Assembly: GCA_029053015.1 (NCBI GenBank)
Contig: JAIDHX010000014.1
Coordinates: forward strand, 45,848 to 109,847
DNA length: 64,000 bases
DNA from: Lachnospiraceae bacterium
GTDB lineage: Bacteria > Bacillota > Clostridia > Lachnospirales > Lachnospiraceae
Direction of reading: 5' to 3'
The notes below the pieces were generated by a model, which saw only the letters and a program-made list of their open reading frames with translations, searched no databases and was not told the origin of the DNA. Of this stretch, positions 6,388 to 59,446 are shown piece after piece. Positions within the stretch are counted from its first letter, which is position 1. Every line of letters starts with the position of its first letter. The translations under genes were made by a program, and so were the position numbers.

Positions 6388-8868
6388 ATGCGGACAGAAG
6401 AAACTATCAATAAGCTGGACAGATTGCTTACGGAAAACAAAGGTCAGGAAGCGCAGCAGCTTTTAGAGGATTCCATCAAACAAGCCATTGAGGAGGCGGA
6501 CGACAACGCGCTGCTTACTTTGCTAAATGAGATGATGGGTTACATGAGGGAGACCAGTCAGGTGGAAGGCTCTTATCATTATGCGGATGCGGCGCTTAAA
6601 CTGATGGAGCGGATGGGGATAAAGGGCAGTATGCCCTACGCGACTACGCTCCTCAATATAGCAAACGCCTATCGGGCCGGCGGCAGGCTGACAGAATCCA
6701 TGGCATATTACGAGGAGGTTTTGAAGCTGTATCAGGCAAGCCTTGACGGAAATGACATGTTTTTTGCCAGTCTCTACAACAATGTAAGTCTTTTGCATCA
6801 GGAAATGAAAAATTTCGGAAAGGCAAAGGAGAATTTGCTGAAAGCGCTGGCTATCGTAAAAGTCAATGAAGGCACATACTTTGAGGAGGCTGTCACCTAT
6901 GCCAATCTTGCCTCCACCTGTCTTGTGCTTCATGAGGACGAAACCGCCATGGAATACTGCAGGCGGGCAATAGAGCTGTTTGAAGCGCACGGTATTTTGG
7001 ATTCCCATTACTGTGCAGCACTGTCTTCCATGGGGACTTATTACTATGGGAAAGGGGAATATGAAAAGGCGGCGGCATGTTTTAAAAAGGCAATGGAAGG
7101 CATGAAGGCGTCTTTGGGAGAGAACGAGTACTATCAAAGATTGGCAAAAAACTTAGAAGAGTGCGAAAGAGCACAAAGGGAGGATGCAATGGAAGAAACA
7201 ACAAAATCAAAGGAACAGATGACCGGACTTGCACTGTGCAGGGCATACTATGAGGAATACGGCAAAGCCATGATTCATGAGAAGTTTGCGGATTATGAGG
7301 ACAAAATTGCCGTAGGTCTCTGCGGGGAAGGCTCGGACTGTTTCGGCTATGACGACAAGGTGTCCAGAGACCACGACTGGGGACCGGGCTTTGCCATGTG
7401 GATGAATATTGAGGTTTATGATGAAATCGGAGAAGAACTGCAGAAGGCATATGAAGAGCTGCCCAAAGAATTTATGGGCTTTAGCCGCATCCCGACAAAG
7501 CGTGCAAAAGGACGTGTGGGCGTATGCACCATAGCCGGCTTTTTCCAGAGAATCCTCGTCACGGAGGATTGTGCTTCGATGATAGATATTGTGTCGGGCG
7601 CATACAAGCTTGAGGAAGAGAGCGGAAAGGTAACAGAGGTACGTGGGGAGCATCCCTATTTTCCGGGCAGTGTGGAGGAGAAAGTAAAGCTGCTTCAAGC
7701 ATGCGCAAAGGAAGGGCAGCTTATCGTATACTGGGACGATATTGCGGACGAATCGCTGGCTGCTGCCGTAAACGGAGAGGTTTTTCGGGATGATGAAGGC
7801 ACTTTTTCAGCGATACAGGAGTTTTTGAGAACCGGTATGCCGCAAGAGGTGTACTATTTAAAACTGACCAATGCCTGTGCCCGTTTTGCACAGGCGGCAC
7901 AATACAATTTTGCCAGAATGGCAGCGCGAAACGATATGGTAGCTGCGGAGCTTTCTTTGGCAGAGGGAATGAAGAACGCAATGAAAATTCTGTATTATCT
8001 GGCCGGAAAGCATCCGCTGCATGATAAGTGGCTTCACAGGGGCATCGCGGAGATTGCGGATTATGAAAAGGAAGCGGAGCTGATTCAGAACATTGTGGAG
8101 GGCGAAGTAACAGCCGAACAGACGGCGCTTGTGGAAGAACTTGCACAGAGACTTGCAGACAGGCTTTATGAGGCAGATGCTATAAGCAGCCGCGAAAGCT
8201 TTTTGGAGTTTCATGTAGACGAACTGTATAAAAAAGAAGGGCTTGCAGAACTGCCGGACGAAGAACTGATTCAGGAAATTGTGGACGCGGAGTTCGAAGC
8301 CTTCGACAAAGTAAAAAACGTTGGCGGCAGGGCGTCCTGTCAGAATAATAAGCCGACTTTTTCCGTTATGCGCAAAAGCCAGTATCTGACATGGGAGCGT
8401 AAAATGCTGATTCAGTATCTGTATGATTTCCAGACGGAATATAAACGCGGGCGCAATCTGATTGAGGAAAAATACGGAAGAATGATGGAGAGCACATCGC
8501 CCGAAGAATATGCGCAGATAGCAGAGCGTTTTCCGATTCTGTCAGAAGAGAAAAAGCAGATCATCGAAGCCATTGTGCAGATTCAAGTGGGATTTATGGA
8601 GGAGTTTGCCGGACAGTTCCCGCGCCTCGCAGGCAATGCCAGACTGATTCATACCAGCGAGGACAGCCTTGGCGATACTTCCTACGAAACCTATCTGCGC
8701 GGCGAACTGGGCACGTATTCTGATAAAATGCTGGAGTTGTATGGGCGTTTTGTGGTCAGAATGTGTCAGGAAGGAAAAAATCTTGCCGCGCTCACCATGC
8801 AAAACAGCGCGCATTTGTACGGCTACCAAAGCCTTGAAGAGGCAGAGGAACGCTGCGATTTCAATTGA
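6388..8868 (+). CDS. Large TPR / DUF4037-like nucleotidyltransferase-fold / DUF4125-like fusion protein
   Basis: TPR-like repeats occupy the N-terminal ~260 aa. The central block GLCGEGSDCFGYDDKVSRDHDWGPGF is typical of DUF4037. The C-terminal ~200 aa resemble DUF4125. Assignment is by memory only. Confidence 0.65.
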   Translation: MRTEETINKLDRLLTENKGQEAQQLLEDSIKQAIEEADDNALLTLLNEMMGYMRETSQVEGSYHYADAALKLMERMGIKGSMPYATTLLNIANAYRAGGRLTESMAYYEEVLKLYQASLDGNDMFFASLYNNVSLLHQEMKNFGKAKENLLKALAIVKVNEGTYFEEAVTYANLASTCLVLHEDETAMEYCRRAIELFEAHGILDSHYCAALSSMGTYYYGKGEYEKAAACFKKAMEGMKASLGENEYYQRLAKNLEECERAQREDAMEETTKSKEQMTGLALCRAYYEEYGKAMIHEKFADYEDKIAVGLCGEGSDCFGYDDKVSRDHDWGPGFAMWMNIEVYDEIGEELQKAYEELPKEFMGFSRIPTKRAKGRVGVCTIAGFFQRILVTEDCASMIDIVSGAYKLEEESGKVTEVRGEHPYFPGSVEEKVKLLQACAKEGQLIVYWDDIADESLAAAVNGEVFRDDEGTFSAIQEFLRTGMPQEVYYLKLTNACARFAQAAQYNFARMAARNDMVAAELSLAEGMKNAMKILYYLAGKHPLHDKWLHRGIAEIADYEKEAELIQNIVEGEVTAEQTALVEELAQRLADRLYEADAISSRESFLEFHVDELYKKEGLAELPDEELIQEIVDAEFEAFDKVKNVGGRASCQNNKPTFSVMRKSQYLTWERKMLIQYLYDFQTEYKRGRNLIEEKYGRMMESTSPEEYAQIAERFPILSEEKKQIIEAIVQIQVGFMEEFAGQFPRLAGNARLIHTSEDSLGDTSYETYLRGELGTYSDKMLELYGRFVVRMCQEGKNLAALTMQNSAHLYGYQSLEEAEERCDFN

Positions 8869-13159: not shown

Positions 13160-13194
13160 CTTAACATTCTCCTTTCAAGGTTGATAATTGTGAC

Positions 13195-13392
13195 AATTGC
13201 AAAACTTATATTTGCCAGTTTCGAATTGTACAGATTGTATACTTCATAAGCAGACCCTTGCTTACCGTCGGCACTTAGCTGCCGTATTTTGGCAGCTTAC
13301 GTACCGCTACGGTAAGCTCGGAGCGAAAGCGAGTCTGCGTTGAAGTATACAATCTGTACAATGACACTTGCTGCATAACGAGTCTTGCAATC
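13195..13392 (-). repeat. Long-hairpin repeat family, copy 1 (consensus orientation on the minus strand)
   Basis: Termini are AATTGCAAAACT...AGTCTTGCAATC. The outer stem TGTACAGATTGTATACTTCA pairs perfectly with TGAAGTATACAATCTGTACA. The core CTTACCGTAGCGGTAC...GTGCCGACGGTAAG matches the other copies. Confidence 0.9.
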
Positions 13393-13575
13393 ACTTGAAT
13401 TCATTATGTGTTGTGTCTCATAATATAGGAAAACAAGGAAAGCCACAAGCGAAGGTTTTTTGAAAGTGGTAAACCGGCAGTTGAAGAACATCATAAAATT
13501 GTGTAGGAGATAAACCATATCCTTTGTGCCGTATCTTTTGAATTGATTGATAAAATTATCGTTGATTTGTTTTGA

Positions 13576-19413: not shown

Positions 19414-19758
19414 TTAGGTGGTGCCGCTGATTTCTGCAATCGCCTGCAGCAGACTCTGCCATTCCGCGGACATTGCCGTCAGATATGTTTTGCCGTCCTC
19501 TGTTATGGTGTAATATTTTCTGGGCGGCAGTCCCTCGGTAGTTTCCTGCCAGTAGGAGGAGAGCAGCCCGTCTTTTAAAAGCCGCCTGAGCAGCGGATAG
19601 ATGGTGCTTTCCTTTGCAGCGAGCATGGGTGATTTCTCCAGCTCACTGATAATCTCATAGCCGTAATAAGCCTTTTTGCTTATCATCAGCAGAATACAAT
19701 ATTCAAGTGTTCCGCGTTTTATCTGGGATTTCCAATCTTCAAGATTCAATAAAACCAC
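19414..19758 (-). CDS. PadR family transcriptional regulator
   Basis: RGTLEYCILLMISKKAYYGYEIISELE...IYPLLRRLLKDGLL. The likely start is GTG at 19758 or TTG at 19749, not the far-upstream ATG of the ORF track. Confidence 0.75.
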   Translation of the reverse strand: MVLLNLEDWKSQIKRGTLEYCILLMISKKAYYGYEIISELEKSPMLAAKESTIYPLLRRLLKDGLLSSYWQETTEGLPPRKYYTITEDGKTYLTAMSAEWQSLLQAIAEISGTT

Positions 19759-19957
19759 CGTCCCTTCGAAGTTCTGTGTTGTCGTAAGCTTTGTAAATTT
19801 ATTTGACGATATACATCGTACCACATAGTATATTAGGTGTCAACAGTAGATTGACAGGAATTTTTACAAGTGATATAATGCATATTACTAATAGTAACAT
19901 AAACGTCGGGAAGCAAATTAGGAAAATGACAATAAAAGAGTTTCTTTAAGGTTTGGT

Positions 19958-20152
19958 AATTGCGAAGTTTAGAAATGCTGCTGTTGTCATTGTGTACATG
20001 GTATATTCCAACGCAGACACGCTCTCGCTCCAAGCTTACCGTAGCGGTACTAAGCTCGAAAATACCTCGCTAAGTACCGACGGTAAGCAAGGGTCTGCTT
20101 ATGGAATATACCATGTGCACAATTCGAAAGCAGCAGATGTGAGTTTCGCAAC
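19958..20152 (+). repeat. Long-hairpin repeat family, copy 2
   Basis: Termini are AATTGCGAAGTT...GAGTTTCGCAAC. The outer stem is CATGGTATATTCCA / TGGAATATACCATG. The core is CTTACCGTAGCGGTAC...GTACCGACGGTAAG. Confidence 0.9.
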
Positions 20153-20175
20153 TATCCTATGAAAGGCAGCAGGTG

Positions 20176-20308
20176 TTTGCGAAACTTTCTTGCAGTTACA
20201 GGAAATGGGCAATATAGACAAAATGAGGGCGACTTGCCACTGCTTCGGAGGCGTTTTTGTCTATATTGAACATTTCCGTCACTTGCTGAAGATACTTCGC
20301 AATCCCTG
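20176..20308 (+). repeat. Second hairpin element with the same termini but an unrelated interior
   Basis: It begins TTTGCGAAACTTTCT and ends CTTCGCAATCCCTG. The interior carries a perfect 14-bp inverted repeat, CAATATAGACAAAA (20210-20223) / TTTTGTCTATATTG (20255-20268), plus GGAAATG / CATTTCC. Confidence 0.75.
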
Positions 20309-20336
20309 CCTTATCACTGCCGGAAAGGAGAACACA

Positions 20337-20909
20337 ATGGAATACATTATACTTGGTCTTCTGCTTTTGAGCGACAGAACTATTTACGGGCTGCGGGACA
20401 GAGTCGGCAAAGGACTGCATTTGATGTACAGCAGCAGTATGGGGAGTATTCAGGCGGCAGTCAGAAAGCTGCTGCAGCATGGATATATTCAGTACAAAGA
20501 GCTGACGGAGCAGGGAAAGCATAAGAAACTGTACTCCATCACCGAAAGCGGAAAAGCGCATTTCAAGGAGTGGGTAAACCGGCCGATGTCACAGGAAAAT
20601 GTAAAAAACCCGGAACTGGCAAAAATTTATTTTATGGGTTTTGCGGATAAGGAAACACGGAGGCGGAATATCGAACAGTATCTGGAGGACTTAAGAGCCC
20701 GCCATCACGCGCTTGCCGCCGTCTGCGAGGAGGGAGAGCGGCTTGCCGTTTCAGAAAAGGGCGGAAAAGAAACAATTCCCGAAGAAGGGCGTGAAATTTT
20801 TGCATACCAGCTTGCGACGGCATATTACGGAAGAGATTTCCTGCAATTCCATATCGCATGGTATGAGAAACTGCTTTTGGAAATGCAGAGAAAGGATGGA
20901 AGGATATGA
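20337..20909 (+). CDS. PadR family transcriptional regulator (long form with C-terminal domain)
   Basis: MEYIILGLLLLSDRTIYGLRDRV...GSIQAAVRKLLQHGYI. RBS GGAAAGGAG before the ATG at 20337. Confidence 0.85.
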   Translation: MEYIILGLLLLSDRTIYGLRDRVGKGLHLMYSSSMGSIQAAVRKLLQHGYIQYKELTEQGKHKKLYSITESGKAHFKEWVNRPMSQENVKNPELAKIYFMGFADKETRRRNIEQYLEDLRARHHALAAVCEEGERLAVSEKGGKETIPEEGREIFAYQLATAYYGRDFLQFHIAWYEKLLLEMQRKDGRI

Positions 20910-26306: not shown

Positions 26307-26393
26307 CTTTAAGTCAGCTCATATTTTTTTACAAAAAAGCTTGCGGCACATGTGTTTTAGGATATTTGGTAAACTATAGATAATTGTGTAGGC

Positions 26394-26588
26394 AATTGCG
26401 AAACTCATATTTGCCGATTTCGAATTGTACACATGGTATATTCCATAAGCAGACCCTTGCTTGCCGTCGGTACTTAGCGAGGTATTTTCGAGCTTAGTAC
26501 CGCTACGGTAAGCTTGGAGCGAGAGCGTGTCTGCGTTGAAATATACCATGCGTACAATGACAACGGTATCGTTTCTGAGTTTCGCAAA
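26394..26588 (-). repeat. Long-hairpin repeat family, copy 3 (minus orientation)
   Basis: The reverse complement is near-identical to copy 2. Termini are AATTGCGAAACTCA...TGAGTTTCGCAAA. It is flanked by CTATAGATAAT at 26374-26384 and 26592-26602. Confidence 0.9.
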
Positions 26589-26725
26589 CGCCTATAGATA
26601 ATCATGGGACGAAAGGAGAGATTTATTTTATGACAACACCCGTTTATTTTGCATAGCGAGGCTATTGCAAATAAGAAAACAGAAAAGAAGTAATAGCCTG
26701 CGCATCGGACTTTTATGAACAGGAG

Positions 26726-36117: not shown

Positions 36118-36625
36118 TATCATCATGGTTTCCCCGCTTGAGCTGACAGGCAGGGACGTATTAAGGCTGAAACATGAATACGAGACGGAAACGGACGGTT
36201 TCACCATCAGCAGCCGCGGGTGTGACGTAATCCTCTTAAACAGGGAAATAGAGGGCGCAGAGGAGATAAGGGCACTCGTTCTAAACATCATGGGGCGGCG
36301 TTACTGTGATGACAGCCTCACGGAGAAGCTGCTTGACGAGTTTGAGGAGAGGACAGACCGGGCGGCATACCTGGCACTATTCCGGATATGGCATGACTGG
36401 AGGGAAGCACGGCAGCAGGCGGACAGGAAGGAGCAGGCGGAATGGTACATAAGGGAATTCAAAAACCAGCGGCTTGCCCTGAGCCAAAAGAAAAAAGGAA
36501 TGCTGCAAATGCTGTTCCATATCGGTTACGGGCTGTATGACGGAAACCACAGGTGCGACTTTGAGACAGGGCAGCTATATTGCTACCTGTACGGGTACAT
36601 GTGCGGGAAAGGGCTTTTGAAATAA
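36086..36625 (+). CDS. Hypothetical protein (satellite accessory gene)
   Basis: 179-aa ORF preceded by GGAAGGGAAAGGAGA. No recognisable domain. Confidence 0.5.
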   Translation: MENITTKKEPDIIMVSPLELTGRDVLRLKHEYETETDGFTISSRGCDVILLNREIEGAEEIRALVLNIMGRRYCDDSLTEKLLDEFEERTDRAAYLALFRIWHDWREARQQADRKEQAEWYIREFKNQRLALSQKKKGMLQMLFHIGYGLYDGNHRCDFETGQLYCYLYGYMCGKGLLK

Positions 36626-36801
36626 ACAGAATGGGCTACCGGCAGGGGCGCAGCCCTGCGCCCTGGCCGGACATGGCGAGAAGGGAGAAAAGCACAATAT
36701 GGCAGACAAAGACAGGAAAAGCATTGGCATACATAAGCAGGAGGCGGACTACAGGAAGATGATAGCCGAGCTTCTGGAAGCGTTCGAGCGGAAATGGGGG
36801 C

Positions 36802-37014
36802 TTGGCTGATTTGGCGGTAAAAATAAGGGTGTCATATGAACAGCCGGAGGAACTGCAGCAGGTGCTTGACATGCTGGGAAAGGGCGCGGAGGACGTCAGA
36901 AAGCCGCGGCAGCAGGCGGGACGGTACAAAAAGGCGTACATAGATTTTGACGGCTTCCCGTGCACGCAGGGAAACACAGCGAAACATGAAAAATACGGTT
37001 GCAGGTCTCCGTGA
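36802..37014 (+). CDS. Small hypothetical protein
   Basis: 70-aa ORF with a TTG start. A 36-aa ORF (36699..36809) lies just upstream. Coding status is uncertain. Confidence 0.3.
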   Translation: MADLAVKIRVSYEQPEELQQVLDMLGKGAEDVRKPRQQAGRYKKAYIDFDGFPCTQGNTAKHEKYGCRSP

Positions 37015-37195
37015 CCCGTGATATACTACATACAGACGAATAGAGAGAGTACCCCAGCCGGAAGGCTGGAAGCCATAAGGCGCGGGAAATGGAAGCCTGA
37101 TAACGGGGCGGCTGTTTCCTGTGCCTTTTTTTGCGGAAAACAGGGAATAAGCCTGCTGCCGTGCAGGTTTACAGGGAAAGGAGGCAGAAAGAAAC

Positions 37196-37783
37196 ATGCT
37201 TACGGACAGACAGAGGCGCTTTGTCGGGGAATACCTGATAGACCTTAACGCGACACAGGCCGCAATAAGGGCAGGATACAGCAGGCGGAACGCGGACAAG
37301 ATAGGCTCTGAGCTGCTAGGGAAAACTGGTGTGTCAAGGGCAGTCAGAAGAGCCATGGAGGCACGCGCGCAGCGTACGGGGATAAAGCAGGACCGTGTTA
37401 TCAGGGAACTGGCAGCAGTCGCTTTCTCTGATGTCTCGGATTATGCAAGGGTAGTGGAGAAGCAGGCAGTGCATACCACAGCCGGCGGCAGGCAGATTCC
37501 GCTATTTGACAGCAGGGGGGAGCCTGTCATCATACAGGACGTGGAGCTTGTGCTTACGGACAGCCTTACACCGGATCAGAAAAGGGTGATCTCCGGAATC
37601 AGGAAGGGAAAGTATGGCGTGGAAGTCACGCTATGCGACAAACTACGGGCGCTTGAGCTTCTGGGGCGGCATCTCGGCATGTTCAGCGACAGGGTGGAAG
37701 TGCCGGGGCTCAATGTGGAAATGTCAAAGATGGATGCCTTGATTCTGGAGATGGGCATAAAGGTAGCAGCGGTAAAACTATAA
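37196..37783 (+). CDS. terS: Phage terminase small subunit
   Basis: MLTDRQRRFVGEYLIDLNATQAAIRAGYS...A...GSELL is the Terminase_2-type N-terminal HTH. RBS GGAAAGGAGG. Confidence 0.8.
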   Translation: MLTDRQRRFVGEYLIDLNATQAAIRAGYSRRNADKIGSELLGKTGVSRAVRRAMEARAQRTGIKQDRVIRELAAVAFSDVSDYARVVEKQAVHTTAGGRQIPLFDSRGEPVIIQDVELVLTDSLTPDQKRVISGIRKGKYGVEVTLCDKLRALELLGRHLGMFSDRVEVPGLNVEMSKMDALILEMGIKVAAVKL

Positions 37784-37837
37784 CAAAAATACACCATTCT
37801 TTACGGGGGAAGAAAGAGAAAGCGAGGAAAAAAGGAA

Positions 37838-38476
37838 ATGAGCAGAAAGTCAGAACTGATTAATCTTTTGGAAGGGTATAAAAAGCAGTATGCGGCGCTG
37901 CAGAAGCAGGCAGCAGAGACAAGAAGCAGCACGGCATACACAGAAGAGGGGAGAAGCCAGAAAATTGCGAAACTGGTTGACGGCTTCGCTTCAACGGCAG
38001 AACAATGTCATGACAGGGCTGTCGGGCTGGTGGAAGCAGCGCTTGCTGCCATGTCGGAGAAGTGGAGGCAAGGAAGCACGGGAAAGATTCAGGACGCAGG
38101 GTACCAGGCAGGGCTTGCGAATACCATCAAAATGCTTGAGATGGGAGCCGTGCGGGAAAAAGAGGATATACAGAACATTATAGACAGCTTTACCGGCGAT
38201 TTCAACGCGCTTGCTGTCATAAGAAAAGTGCTGGAGCAGAGCGGTGATGAAGAGCTTGCAGGCTGTGCCGCATTGGTGCCGAAGGATAACCGGGAGTACA
38301 GCAGGCGGCTTCTTGGGCAGCTCAAAACCAATATGGACAGAGATATCAACATACAGGCGGTGCGTGACGCGCTGTATTCACAGCATAATCAGGATTTTGA
38401 CCCCGTTCCGATGGGCATTGAAGGAATGCTGCAGTTCATAACAGACCGCCTTGATGATAATCTGGAGCTTCTGTAG
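37838..38476 (+). CDS. Hypothetical protein (satellite accessory gene)
   Basis: 212-aa ORF, helical, with no recognisable domain. Confidence 0.5.
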   Translation: MSRKSELINLLEGYKKQYAALQKQAAETRSSTAYTEEGRSQKIAKLVDGFASTAEQCHDRAVGLVEAALAAMSEKWRQGSTGKIQDAGYQAGLANTIKMLEMGAVREKEDIQNIIDSFTGDFNALAVIRKVLEQSGDEELAGCAALVPKDNREYSRRLLGQLKTNMDRDINIQAVRDALYSQHNQDFDPVPMGIEGMLQFITDRLDDNLELL

Positions 38477-38502
38477 TAAGGCAGAGTCGCGGGAGGGCAG
38501 GC

Positions 38503-39414
38503 ATGACGAATGAAGAGCTTGTGCGGCTTATCAAAGCCGGTGTTGACAGGGAAAACAACATGCTGCAGCTTTACATACAGGTTAAAGGCTTTATAGGCGC
38601 AATTGCCATGCGTTACCGTGGAAGGGCGGAAATGGAGGATTTGGAGCAGGAGGGCTTCCTTGCCTTGTATGACGCCGTTGAAGGGTATGATTCGGGGCGC
38701 GGGTGTATGTTTCTCACCTATGCCGGCTACTGGATAAAGCGCCGTCTGTCCCAGTATGCAGGCAGAAGCGGCAATGTTGCCGGCTTGTCGGTCGAGGCGG
38801 TAAAAAGTCTGTCCGTATATAAGAACATGGTTAATACATTCCTCCTGTGCATAGGCAGGGAACCCACAAGGCAGGAAACAGCGGAGTGTATGAACGTCCC
38901 GATAAGTCAGGTTGAGGAACTGGAAATGCTTGCCCACATGGAAAAGGCGGAAAGCCTTGAATTGCCTGCTGCCGGCAGCAGGCATGATACAGCGCTGTGT
39001 GACCTGTTGCCGTCTGCTGAGAATCTGGAAGCGGATGTGTTGGAGCAACTGCAGTGTGAACAGCTTTCCCATATCCTGTGGGCACAGGTGAACAGGCTGC
39101 CGGCTGAGCAGGGGTGTGTGATTCGCGCAAAGTATTTAGACGGGCGCACTTACAGGGAAATCAGCGCCGGTATGGGGATAGAAGCGGGAAAGGTAAGGAA
39201 CATTGAACATAATGCACTGTGGAAGCTGCGCCTTTCGCGTGATTCCTGCCTACTCCGTTCTTTTCTTCCGGAGTATGAGGATATCTACAGCAGAGGGATA
39301 AAAGGGAGCGGCTCCCGTCACTTTGATACCACATGGACCAGCTCGACGGAGCGGGTGGCATTGGAGGATATGGCAAGAAAAAGTGTCACTAGTAGTGTCA
39401 CTAGTAGAATTTAA
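38503..39414 (+). CDS. Sigma-70 family RNA polymerase sigma factor
   Basis: Region 2 (DLEQEGFLALYDAVEGYD...FLTYAGYWIKRRL) and region 4 (YREISAGMGIEAGKVRNIEHNALWKLR). The last codons coincide with the right-arm repeats. Confidence 0.8.
   Translation: MTNEELVRLIKAGVDRENNMLQLYIQVKGFIGAIAMRYRGRAEMEDLEQEGFLALYDAVEGYDSGRGCMFLTYAGYWIKRRLSQYAGRSGNVAGLSVEAVKSLSVYKNMVNTFLLCIGREPTRQETAECMNVPISQVEELEMLAHMEKAESLELPAAGSRHDTALCDLLPSAENLEADVLEQLQCEQLSHILWAQVNRLPAEQGCVIRAKYLDGRTYREISAGMGIEAGKVRNIEHNALWKLRLSRDSCLLRSFLPEYEDIYSRGIKGSGSRHFDTTWTSSTERVALEDMARKSVTSSVTSRI
39383..39409 (+). promoter_or_regulatory. Candidate integrase arm-type binding sites (right arm)
   Basis: GTCACTAGTAG at 39385 and 39397, the same motif and orientation as at 29092-29118. 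Confidence 0.5.
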
Positions 39415-39499
39415 TGCAATATTATGGCAAAAATAGTGAAGTAGAGAAAATGTTGTAAAGGCTGGATTTTTCAAAAAATAAATGACGGGAAAACAGGAT

Positions 39500-39533
39500 T
39501 TTATGAAGAGAATATTAATCTTTTTTTAAGATG
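39500..39533 (+). repeat. Right attachment-site core (34 bp)
   Basis: Identical to 29014..29047. Confidence 0.85.
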
Positions 39534-43978: not shown

Positions 43979-44518
43979 ATGAAAAAAATGAGTACCCTTT
44001 ATATAGTCGCAATCCTTATTGTGACGCTTGCGGCTTGCGCTGACAATACCGAGCAGAGTCAAAATGCCCCTGTCATCTCTGTTTCTGTACAAGATGAAAG
44101 TGTGAGGGAACCTAAGATTGAGGATGAGCCGGAACAGAGCTACGATAATCCCAGCAATCCCGTTCTTGAACAGGATGCCAGTGTGAGTGAGCTTAAGGCT
44201 GAGGATGGGACGGAGCAGGGAAGCGATAATCTCAATAGTCCCGTTTCTGAACAGGGAGAAAGTGTGAGCGAGCCTGAGATTGAAGGCGAGCCGGAGCAGA
44301 GCTATGATAATCCCGGCAATCCCGTTTCTGAACAGGATGAAAGTGTGAGTGAGCCTAAGACTGAGGGTGGGCCGGAGCAGAGCGATGATAATCTCAGCAA
44401 TCCCGTTTCTGAACAGGATGAAAGTGTAGGTAAGCCTGTTATGGAGGGGTGCTATGATGACCCCAATAATCCTGTTGCAAATCAGAATTATAGTGTAGGT
44501 GAACCAAATCATGAGTAA
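43979..44518 (+). CDS. Lipoprotein with acidic 27-aa tandem repeats
   Basis: The signal peptide has a lipobox (LIVTLAAC). It is followed by about 4.8 repeats of the type SVSEPKxEGxPEQSxDNxxNPVSEQDE. Confidence 0.7.
   Translation: MKKMSTLYIVAILIVTLAACADNTEQSQNAPVISVSVQDESVREPKIEDEPEQSYDNPSNPVLEQDASVSELKAEDGTEQGSDNLNSPVSEQGESVSEPEIEGEPEQSYDNPGNPVSEQDESVSEPKTEGGPEQSDDNLSNPVSEQDESVGKPVMEGCYDDPNNPVANQNYSVGEPNHE
44093..44485 (+). repeat. 81-bp in-frame tandem repeats (4 full units plus 1 partial)
   Basis: Units start at 44093, 44174, 44255, 44336 and 44417. Confidence 0.85.
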
Positions 44519-46096: not shown

Positions 46097-46325
46097 TGTG
46101 TAGGGGCTGCGAAACTCAGAAACGATACCGTTGTCATTGTACACATAGTATATTCCAACGCAGACTCGCTTTCGCTCCGAGCTTACCGTAGCGGTACGTA
46201 AGCTGCCAAAATACGGCAGCAAGTCATGCCCGGCATGACTTTGGTACCGACGGTAAGCAAAGGTCTGCTTATGGAATATCCTATGTGCACAATTCGAAAC
46301 CGGCAAATAGGAGTTTCACAACTAC
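46097..46325 (+). repeat. Long-hairpin repeat family, copy 4 (with an extra apical hairpin)
   Basis: TGTGTAGGGGCTGCGAAACTCAG...GGAGTTTCACAACTAC. The core carries GCTGCCAAAATACGGCAGC plus the extra hairpin AAGTCATGC-CCG-GCATGACTT. Confidence 0.9.
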
Positions 46326-46342
46326 TTAGTCATATATAAGCA

Positions 46343-46389
46343 TTTGCGAAACTTTCTGTCCCTTGCAGAAACCATTTCGCAATCACCTG
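46343..46389 (+). repeat. Short element carrying only the family termini
   Basis: TTTGCGAAACTTTCTGTCCCTTGCAGAAACCATTTCGCAATCACCTG. Its ends match those of element 20176..20308. Confidence 0.7.
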
Positions 46390-53784: not shown

Positions 53785-53803
53785 AGAAGAGAGGTAGGGT
53801 TTT

Positions 53804-59219: not shown

Positions 59220-59446
59220 GAGGCAATTGCGGAACGCGGTGATTATGCCGTTGTCATTGTGTATCTTGTACATTCCAACGCAGACGCGCTTTCGCTTCGA
59301 GCCAGCCGTAGCGGTACGTAAGCTGCCAAAATACGGCGCAAGTCATGCGGGCATGACTTTGGTGCCGACGGCTGGTAAGGGTCTGCTTATGGAATATACA
59401 AGATACACAATTCGGATTTGGCAAAAAGGAGTTTTGCAATTACCTG
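59217..59446 (+). repeat. Long-hairpin repeat family, copy 5 (argB-argD intergenic)
   Basis: TGAGAGGCAATTGCGG...GGAGTTTTGCAATTACCTG. The outer stem is ATTGTGTATCTTGTA / TACAAGATACACAAT. The core stem is changed to CCAGCC...GGCTGG. It is flanked by TGATGGAT at 59209-59216 and 59447-59454. Confidence 0.9.

Follow-up and report, generated by a model that had tools for sequence, protein, structure and literature searches.

Two tandem elements between divergent PadR genes of a Lachnospiraceae bacterium are very probably MITEs of two families that share the ends of an insertion sequence

Several bacteria are known to harbour MITEs whose similarity to a parent insertion sequence (IS) is confined to the terminal repeats. 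RUP of Streptococcus pneumoniae is related in this way to IS630-Spn1 and MIC231 of the Bacillus cereus group to IS231, and the Correia (NEMIS) elements of Neisseria are bacterial MITEs of the same sort. Among other repeats, the BOX elements of S. pneumoniae are modular (boxA-boxB-boxC), and no transposase is known for them; REPs are about 20-40 nt long; and integron attC sites carry AAC/GTT core sites with the consensus RYYYAAC...GTTRRRY.

The block at positions 19953-20308 of the DNA analysed here (64,000 nucleotides, referred to as the window) lies between two divergent PadR-family genes and very probably consists of two MITEs, of families that we call A and B, which are placed head to tail and share the ends of an IS (Table 1). 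The properties of MITEs that sequence comparison can reveal were all found: a suitable size, terminal repeats, target duplications, dispersed copies, an IS with the same ends, and both filled and empty sites. Like RUP, MIC231 and Correia, A and B are about 50-230 bp long, non-coding, bounded by IS-identical ends and flanked by target duplications, and they form high-copy intergenic DNA that is co-transcribed with neighbouring genes and offers several interiors per set of ends. They differ from those MITEs in the sequence of their ends, interiors and partner IS, in the length of the duplication (about 10-12 bp, compared with the TA dinucleotide of RUP and Correia), in that the whole element is a near-perfect hairpin with compensatory variation, and in the recurrence of ordered A-to-B tandems. 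BOX elements resemble them as modular intergenic repeats in which different hairpin modules stand in a fixed order within transcribed intergenic DNA; in A and B, however, every module stands as a full element that has terminal repeats and a duplication of its own, and a partner IS has been identified. No prior description of either family was found in the literature searched, and A and B appear to be uncatalogued representatives of ordinary mobile DNA of a well-known kind.

Table 1. Coordinates of the PadR locus and of the family A and B elements in the window.
Feature	Position	Strand	Details
Left PadR-family regulator gene	19414-19749	-	111 aa, TTG start; Pfam PadR E 2.6e-20
Predicted back-to-back sigma-70-like promoters	19815-19879	.	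consensus scan
Family A copy (MITE)	19953-20159	+	207 nt; ~205-nt near-perfect hairpin; bounds set by terminal repeats
Spacer between A and B	20160-20169	.	10 nt, TGAAAGGCAG; length of one target duplication
Family B copy (MITE)	20170-20308	+	139 nt; nhmmer family search
Right PadR-family gene	20337-20909 (RBS 20322-20330)	+	ATG 20337, 190 aa; PadR + Vir_act_alpha_C
Family A copy	13189-13396	-	between BlaR1-like M56 peptidase gene and HTH_3-methyltransferase gene; nhmmer
Family A copy	26389-26594	-	end TAGGCGTTTGCGAAAC; nhmmer
Family A copy	46101-46328	+	nhmmer 219 bits, alignments; followed by B-type element
Apparent internally deleted B element	46337-46389	+	53 nt, TAAGCATTTGCGAAAC...ATTTCGCAATCACCTG; 8 nt after A copy, 29 nt before MerR-family ATG (46419)
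Family A copy	59220-59446	+	between argB (AA_kinase) and argD (Aminotran_3); nhmmer

The original prediction, made from the letters of the window, had placed a second element at 20176-20308, 24 bp behind the first. That element is real, but its terminal repeats, CAGGTGTTTGCGAAAC (20170-20185) and TACTTCGCAATCCCTG (20293-20308), move its left boundary outward, and the facing terminal repeats of the two elements are separated by a spacer of 10 nt, the value of 24 being the distance from TTTCGCAA to TTTGCGAA. The remaining features read from the letters are all present, namely the family termini, the unrelated and self-complementary interior, the 14-bp arms (CAATATAGACAAAA at 20210-20223 and TTTTGTCTATATTG at 20255-20268) and the second stem formed by GGAAATG (20201-20207) and CATTTCC (20271-20277); the apex of this copy, GAGGGCGACTTGCCACTGCTTCGGAGGCG, is asymmetric. 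The A copy is closed by the terminal repeats TTGGTAATTGCGAAGT (19953-19968) and TTTCGCAACTATCCTA (20144-20159) and scores 216 bits on the + strand and 61 bits on the - strand (nhmmer). Folding, which had been proposed as a check, found both elements stable: compared with shuffled sequence, the A copy as RNA (-102.9 kcal/mol) has z = -12.0 and the B region z = -4.2, and as single-stranded DNA B has z = -5.9 on the + strand and z = -7.0 on the - strand. No ORF beyond chance was found in A (207 nt), B (139 nt) or the short form of 53 nt.

What unites the two elements is their termini. A and B have 16-nt terminal inverted repeats in common, TAGGnnWTTGCGAAAC, and unrelated interiors. At both ends of either family the consensus covers 16-18 nt, TAGGnnWTTGCGAAAC(TC), and when anchored on the terminal motif the consensus ends read TAGGtgATTGCGAAACTC...GAGTTTCGCAATTaCCTA for A and cAGnTaaTTGCGAAACTt...TATTTCGCAATtanCt for B; outside TAGG/CCTA, conservation breaks off sharply. 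A search for paired termini, another check that had been proposed, also supported the family: among TTGCGAAAC...GTTTCGCAA pairs 25-420 nt apart in 0.84 Mb of related loci, 62 face inward and 7 outward, although the bare 9-mer TTGCGAAAC, with at most one mismatch, is without enrichment in the window (20 matches vs 21.5 expected). The same ends also enclose a third interior class of about 210 nt (locus L054, 6644-6856), more interior classes among IMG/VR contigs (for example L145 and L184) and internally deleted mini-elements (loci L006, L042 and L004).

Both families are dispersed. Family A has five copies within the 64-kb window, with strand-specific nhmmer scores, and when these copies are compared, both bases differ in 16 of the 74 predicted pairs. 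When one genome per species was searched with the A core pattern, more than 102 loci were recovered, nearly all from Lachnospiraceae/Acetatifactor MAGs and with many copies per genome; 102 genome loci plus the window yielded 124 A matches. Between loci, the sequence match is limited to the elements, and the flanks differ. The A core pattern found no match in IMG/VR, and a blastn comparison of A and B with PLSDB plasmids and INPHARED phages found none either. For family B, nhmmer identified 13 copies in the 102 Lachnospiraceae genome loci, which had been chosen by the A core pattern, and a scan of metagenome contigs for the B apex, a sample selected on that apex and therefore unbiased with respect to A, gave 96 loci with 110 B copies, 91 of them standing alone. 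The second subfamily with the family termini, proposed from this one locus, is genuine. Its alignment has a conserved hairpin with compensatory changes in 11 of 38 pairs and a conserved asymmetric apex, AAAATAAGGGCGACTTGCCACGCTTCGGAGSCCGTTTTTG. One single MAG was seen to carry copies on at least 20 contigs.

A 15-mer of the B copy, TTTGCGAAACTTTCT, is found again at 46343, just past another A copy. The short element recognised there (about 46343-46389) had been assigned to the same system, rightly so, since either end is closer to the consensus of B than to that of A: 18 of 26 positions agree against 13 of 26 at its 5' end, and 23 of 27 against 15 of 27 at its 3' end. Judged by its sequence, this element is a B copy minus its interior. 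As single-stranded DNA it has z = -4.05 compared with shuffled sequence, and the gene that starts at ATG 46419 has a MerR Pfam match.

The tandem arrangement likewise recurs, in genome loci as well as in metagenome loci. In the genome loci, ten B copies follow a co-oriented A copy on its downstream side at a distance of 0-21 nt, and in the B-selected metagenome sample all eight A copies stand immediately 5' of a B copy, again with the orientation shared; a single A/B tandem, at locus L020, is a truncated inverted fusion. The spacers between A and B are usually unrelated sequences of 0-16 nt, about one target duplication. At loci L033 and L289 the A element has its own 12-13-bp duplication, the right-hand repeat of which ends exactly at the start of B. 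Other combinations occur as well: B-B-B arrays exist with a period of 153 nt, and in pCY360 the IS adjoins the end of another IS copy, the two being separated and followed by the 14-bp repeat CATTTATTTATAAA. At locus L073, on the other hand, the direct repeat AAATTGAGAtAGAG flanks A and B as a whole, and an A-spacer-B unit with the spacer variant of the window, ATGAAAGKCAGCAGGTG, is present at three loci with unrelated flanks (the window, L062/L249 and L269). Two routes to A-to-B tandems are thus documented, insertion against a resident end and composite movement. In the first, a newcomer would land right beside a terminus of an element already in place, and the spacer would be one target duplication; in the second, the outer ends of an existing pair would be used, so that the pair moves as a composite.

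Target duplications are widespread in both families. In the metagenome sample, direct repeats with a score of at least 7 flank 76% of 96 B copies, compared with 3.8% of shuffled-pair controls, and these duplications are typically 10 bp long and abut the termini (for example GAAATATACA at locus L287). For A, the same score is reached by 21 of 56 complete copies (38%) compared with 5.6% of a control in which left and right flanks were paired at random; examples are loci L010 (17-19 bp), L038 (14 bp) and L088 (12 bp). The duplications are about 10-14 bp long, abut the termini and differ in sequence from site to site. Within the window, the A copy at 26389-26594 is flanked by a 12-nt direct repeat with two mismatches, CATGATTATCTA / CACAATTATCTA (26595-26606 and 26377-26388), and TGATGGAT stands on either side of the copy at 59220-59446. 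Around A, B or the pair at 19953-20308 there is no convincing target duplication, the best candidate being TTTAAGG vs TGAAAGG, which suggests that the insertion is old or that the repeat has decayed.

Occupied and unoccupied sites can be compared directly in three cases. The 19-nt argJ-side spacer at 53785-53803 of the window is an empty site which at locus L093 is filled with an A copy, and filled and empty orthologous sites were also found at L088 and L091 and at L026 and L020, respectively; the members of these pairs are from different species, with 68-87% flank identity. Queries with the hydrolase and MerR genes yielded nothing beyond contigs of the same sample that break inside the repeats, with no strain-level empty site, and a search for the exact PadR2 protein was without a match. 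Where copies are present they take up nearly the whole intergenic spacer, from about 4 nt past the stop codon to some 30-36 nt short of the next start. Both orientations are represented, with roughly 50 copies co-oriented and 30 anti-oriented with the downstream gene, and the neighbours of the copies are unrelated genes such as argB/argD, tpiA-like, mutL-like and icd-like genes.

The setting between two divergent PadR genes invites a local reading, in which 20170-20308 is a locus-specific PadR operator and TTGCGAAAC/GTTTCGCAA are palindromic half-sites bound by both PadR proteins. The motif is indeed an inverted repeat, but it is also the terminal repeat of an IS, more than 100 B copies lie beside unrelated genes, and the predicted promoters lie upstream of both A and B, so that we give this reading almost no credence. 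The + strand promoter predicted at 19851-19879 (TTGACA-17-TATAAT, 12/12, with an extended -10 TG) and its - strand counterpart at 19843-19815 (TTGACA-17-TACGAT, 10/12) stand back to back, and a consensus scan of the + strand inside A or B found no promoter-like or terminator-like site of note. Since the + strand promoter is upstream of A, the two elements would belong to the 5' UTR of the right PadR gene and not to an operator; transcription of this gene, whose RBS reads GGAAAGGAG, would run from about 19886 through A and B and give a leader of about 450 nt. The 350-bp block had been thought to fill the shared control region of the PadR pair, and its termini to be PadR half-sites. On the position of the predicted promoters, the real shared control region is probably the stretch of about 130 bp upstream of A, and the same elements adjoin unrelated genes elsewhere; nor is the second element unique to this locus. 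A PadR operator is therefore best sought in 19750-19950. By their insertion A and B would add two long hairpins to the 5' UTR of the right PadR gene, and any putative regulatory effect would be a by-product. A Rex/CRP-like operator, considered for copies that read TTGTGAAA...TTTCACAA, was rejected because its half-site spacing would be far too long.

That both elements lie within a 5' UTR here also bears on an explanation at the level of RNA, according to which A and B are structured cis-regulatory RNAs of leaders or intercistronic regions (for example RNase III or stability modules) which are selected in mRNAs and whose shared closing stem is a protein-binding helix. The very stable folds, the compensatory changes in both families, the strand asymmetry of the nhmmer scores, and the placement about 4 nt after a stop and 30-36 nt before a start, with an excess of co-orientation of about 50:30, are all what such RNAs would be expected to display. 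However, they would not be expected to carry site-specific target duplications of 10-14 bp or termini identical to those of a transposase-encoding IS, to lie in either orientation beside functionally unrelated genes, or to have filled and empty orthologous sites, and they have no Rfam family: at the gathering score there were no matches in the whole window, and at an E-value threshold only the noise of miRNA-precursor hairpins. We consider this origin improbable. The insertions may have side effects at the RNA level, but such effects cannot account for how the elements arose. A riboswitch or other leader RNA was likewise dropped, as it fits neither the duplications nor the lack of relationship among the downstream genes.

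These ends also belong to an autonomous IS. A scan of IMG/VR for the terminal repeat TAGGNRATTGCGAAAC gave 116 loci; 29 matches lie less than 200 nt from the end of a locus and read outward, as is expected where assemblies break in a repeat, and at 27 loci a 485-aa ORF, full length in 20 of them, adjoins the match. Complete copies of the IS measure 1727-1796 bp, have the ends TAGGTAATTGCGAAAC and TAGGCGTTTGCGAAAC, and contain the 485-aa ORF as their single ORF. At least 9 of 17 distinct full copies are flanked by duplications of 10-12(13) bp that directly abut TAGG...CCTA. The IS is a common one in gut Lachnospiraceae, the clade that also hosts the MITEs, and is present on a plasmid of Roseburia sp. 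831b (89% identity), in Butyrivibrio proteoclasticus B316 pCY360, in Agathobacter rectalis and in Clostridium felsineum, and in Lachnospiraceae bacterium 47-T17 it is flanked by the 10-bp duplication TGGTGATTAT; homologues of its transposase form at least 3,759 clusters at E <=1e-30, many on contigs of about 1.7-2 kb. The sequence common to IS and MITEs is confined to the terminal 15-18 nt. There, the B end AGGTGTTTGCGAAAC of the window is identical at 15/15 positions to the right end of the IS at L157, and the end of the A copy at 26389-26594 agrees with the right end of the IS at 16/16 positions. At its left end, the IS has the terminal repeat next to an inverted copy of it, and the two form a mini-hairpin. 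A search of the window, the 8-kb genome loci and the metagenome loci with the transposase (tblastn) gave no match, no long TIR-flanked ORFs were found within the 8-kb genome loci, and neither A nor B turned up in the IMG/VR loci carrying the IS. The motif GTGCGCC on the IS reverse strand had brought a group II intron end into consideration; this candidate was dropped, as the sequence lies inside the IS.

The transposase has a Pfam DUF772 match above the Pfam cut-off (E 2.5e-12) and a weak DDE_Tnp_1 match below it. Its best NCBIfam model is that of the IS1182 family (NF033551, E 4.6e-18), at 65 bits against a cut-off of 270. By these models the protein is IS1182-like and not an IS1182 member, and its family assignment is loose. 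With a single ORF of about 485 aa that combines an N-terminal DUF772 with a C-terminal DDE_Tnp_1-like region, 16-bp repeats and a length of about 1.75 kb, the partner IS resembles IS1182/IS5-like DDE elements. ISPse1, which belongs to the IS1182 family, measures 1653 bp and has 16/16 repeats and a 4-bp duplication (PMC3281130). The partner IS differs from ISPse1 in its duplication of 10-12 bp rather than 4 bp, and from the IS1182 family both in that score of 65 bits against 270 and in the mini-hairpin at its left end.

Two other kinds of repeat were weighed against MITEs. According to the first alternative, A and B are folded-DNA recombination sites, attC-type or another single-strand site, where a tyrosine recombinase or HUH enzyme reads the hairpin and not the sequence; the original prediction had leaned towards such a comparison and set the elements apart from a classical MITE. 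The resemblance to integron attC sites is real: A and B are imperfect palindromes of variable length with short conserved ends and variable yet always self-complementary interiors, their folding as single-stranded DNA is highly significant on both strands, and their AAAC...GTTT ends look superficially like the attC core AAC/GTT. However, GCGAAAC/GTTTCGC is a misfit to RYYYAAC/GTTRRRY, and the copies are single and dispersed inside operons instead of forming cassette arrays. The window has a single tyrosine recombinase (29147-30322), which at 24 bits against a cut-off of 265 for TIGR02249 is no integron integrase and is part of a separate 10.5-kb island. Target duplications of about 10 bp are a hallmark of transposition with a staggered cut and are not generated by site-specific recombination, and the enzyme found in partnership with these ends is a DDE-type transposase. 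Inverted repeats, duplications of about 10-14 bp and an IS with the same ends thus speak for a MITE after all, and a folded-site origin is exceedingly improbable.

The second alternative, that A and B are REP/BIME-like palindromic units spread by a RAYT (IS200/IS605-like Y1) enzyme, is hardly more credible. It would account for intergenic, palindromic units of high copy number that form mosaics and tandem arrays, but the elements measure about 135-205 nt, far beyond the 20-40 nt of REPs, and are bounded by 16-bp terminal inverted repeats and flanked by target duplications; a Y1 transposase was not observed, and the autonomous element encodes a DUF772/DDE protein.

If A and B are MITEs, as we favour, a transposase supplied in trans would bind both ends of an element and insert it at a staggered cut of about 10-12 bp, so that the target is duplicated, presumably by cut-and-paste chemistry. 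Since only the ends would be needed, any interior could be carried, which would explain why unrelated interiors (A, B, C and others) and deleted mini-elements have identical termini. Such a bare MITE model does leave some features unexplained. The full-length hairpins with their compensatory changes, together with the conserved asymmetric cores, exceed what a transposase needs, and a textbook MITE would not be expected to form tandems in a fixed order, end to end, or to lie so regularly a short way upstream of ribosome-binding sites. It is conceivable, though unlikely, that the transposase is guided to resident ends and to spacers upstream of Shine-Dalgarno sequences, building ordered arrays (A-B, B-B-B, IS-IS), and that the hairpins are kept by selection, either for the handling of a folded strand in transposition or because their transcripts have been co-opted to process or stabilise mRNAs, in leaders like the one of the present PadR gene.

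As MITEs with an identified partner, A, B and the IS offer a tractable system for the study of transposition in Lachnospiraceae. They also matter for annotation, as gut Lachnospiraceae of mouse, vole and other origin carry the repeats in abundance and the repeats are open to being mistaken for regulatory RNAs or operators, which did occur at this locus; a catalogue of A, B, the 16-bp ends and the partner IS would give annotators a simple masking rule. Finally, the repeats break metagenome assemblies: Logan contigs of the present strain stop within A and B, and in IMG/VR many contigs break off some 55-75 nt after an element begins.

The putative autonomous partner of these repeats, an IS1182-like insertion sequence (IS) of 1.73-1.80 kb, begins on the left with a mini-hairpin (IMG/VR locus L158, 64-95, and equivalents), in which the terminal repeat that it has in common with the hairpin MITE families A and B is joined to an inverted copy of itself, TAGGTAATTGCGAAAC-AAG-TTCGCAATCCTGA. 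This design is shared with the "short" elements of 40-65 nt. On the side of the transposase start, the flank of about 15 of the 17 IS copies (full copies, IMG/VR loci L105-L217) carries a Shine-Dalgarno-like AAAGGAG located 14-20 nt from the IS end, which places the IS, always in a single orientation, closely in front of a gene of the host or of a phage.

Within the ~205-nt A family, the asymmetric core CAACGCAGACnCGCTyTCGCTCC ... AAGGGTCTGCTTATGG (for example, window positions 20007-20031 and 20097-20115) is better conserved than the outer arms, the reverse of the usual MITE pattern, and many distant copies align to HMM positions ~22-178 or 51-152 only. The ~135-nt B family also occurs as head-to-tail arrays of two or three units with a period of 153-154 nt (L264, 2675-3112; L242, 3094-3378; L274, 6083-6368), in which one common spacer of ~13 nt separates the units and is present flanking the array as well. 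Further MITE-like elements have interiors related to neither family (see the table).

At one orthologous intergenic site, where the flanks are 86% identical, an A copy is found in L084 (7129-7355) and an unrelated stretch of 188 nt in L034 (910-1098). The latter includes a small hairpin, GGAGTTTGCACTGCTCTTTCGCAAACTCC, made of halves that resemble the terminal repeat, and may be a remnant or footprint.

Two Logan contigs from sample SRR14411295 (L103 and L104) encode proteins identical to those of the window and break within the repeats: in B the break lies ~78 nt before the PadR start codon (ATG), in A it lies 169 nt before that of MerR (ATG). Contig ends at these positions show that short-read assemblies are fragmented by the A and B repeats.

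Other features of the window and additional MITE-like elements
Feature	Location	Details
Integrated element (island)	window 29004-39533	~10.5 kb; bracketed by 44-nt direct repeats
Direct repeats of the island	window 29004-29047 and 39490-39533	44 nt, 34 nt exact
Tyrosine recombinase gene of the island	window 29147-30322	minus strand
Duplicated segment (repeat families D6, D9)	window 30636-30784 and 30940-31087	~150 bp; offset ~304 bp; 76-83% identity
Tandem repeat (family D1)	window 44081-44485	81-nt period; four overlapping 162-nt copies; 69-82% identity
MITE-like elements, TAGGnnATTGCGAAAC ends	L054 6644-6856; L145 ~7667-7770; L184 4352-4539	interiors unrelated to A or B

In addition to its tyrosine recombinase, the integrated island encodes XRE-type repressors, a sigma factor, a small terminase, an ERF recombinase and an IstB/DnaC-like ATPase. 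Genes for capsid or tail proteins were not seen in it, and the element looks like a phage-satellite (PICI-like) island. The duplicated segment lies directly upstream of the island repressor gene, and the tandem repeat of family D1 falls within a long ORF.
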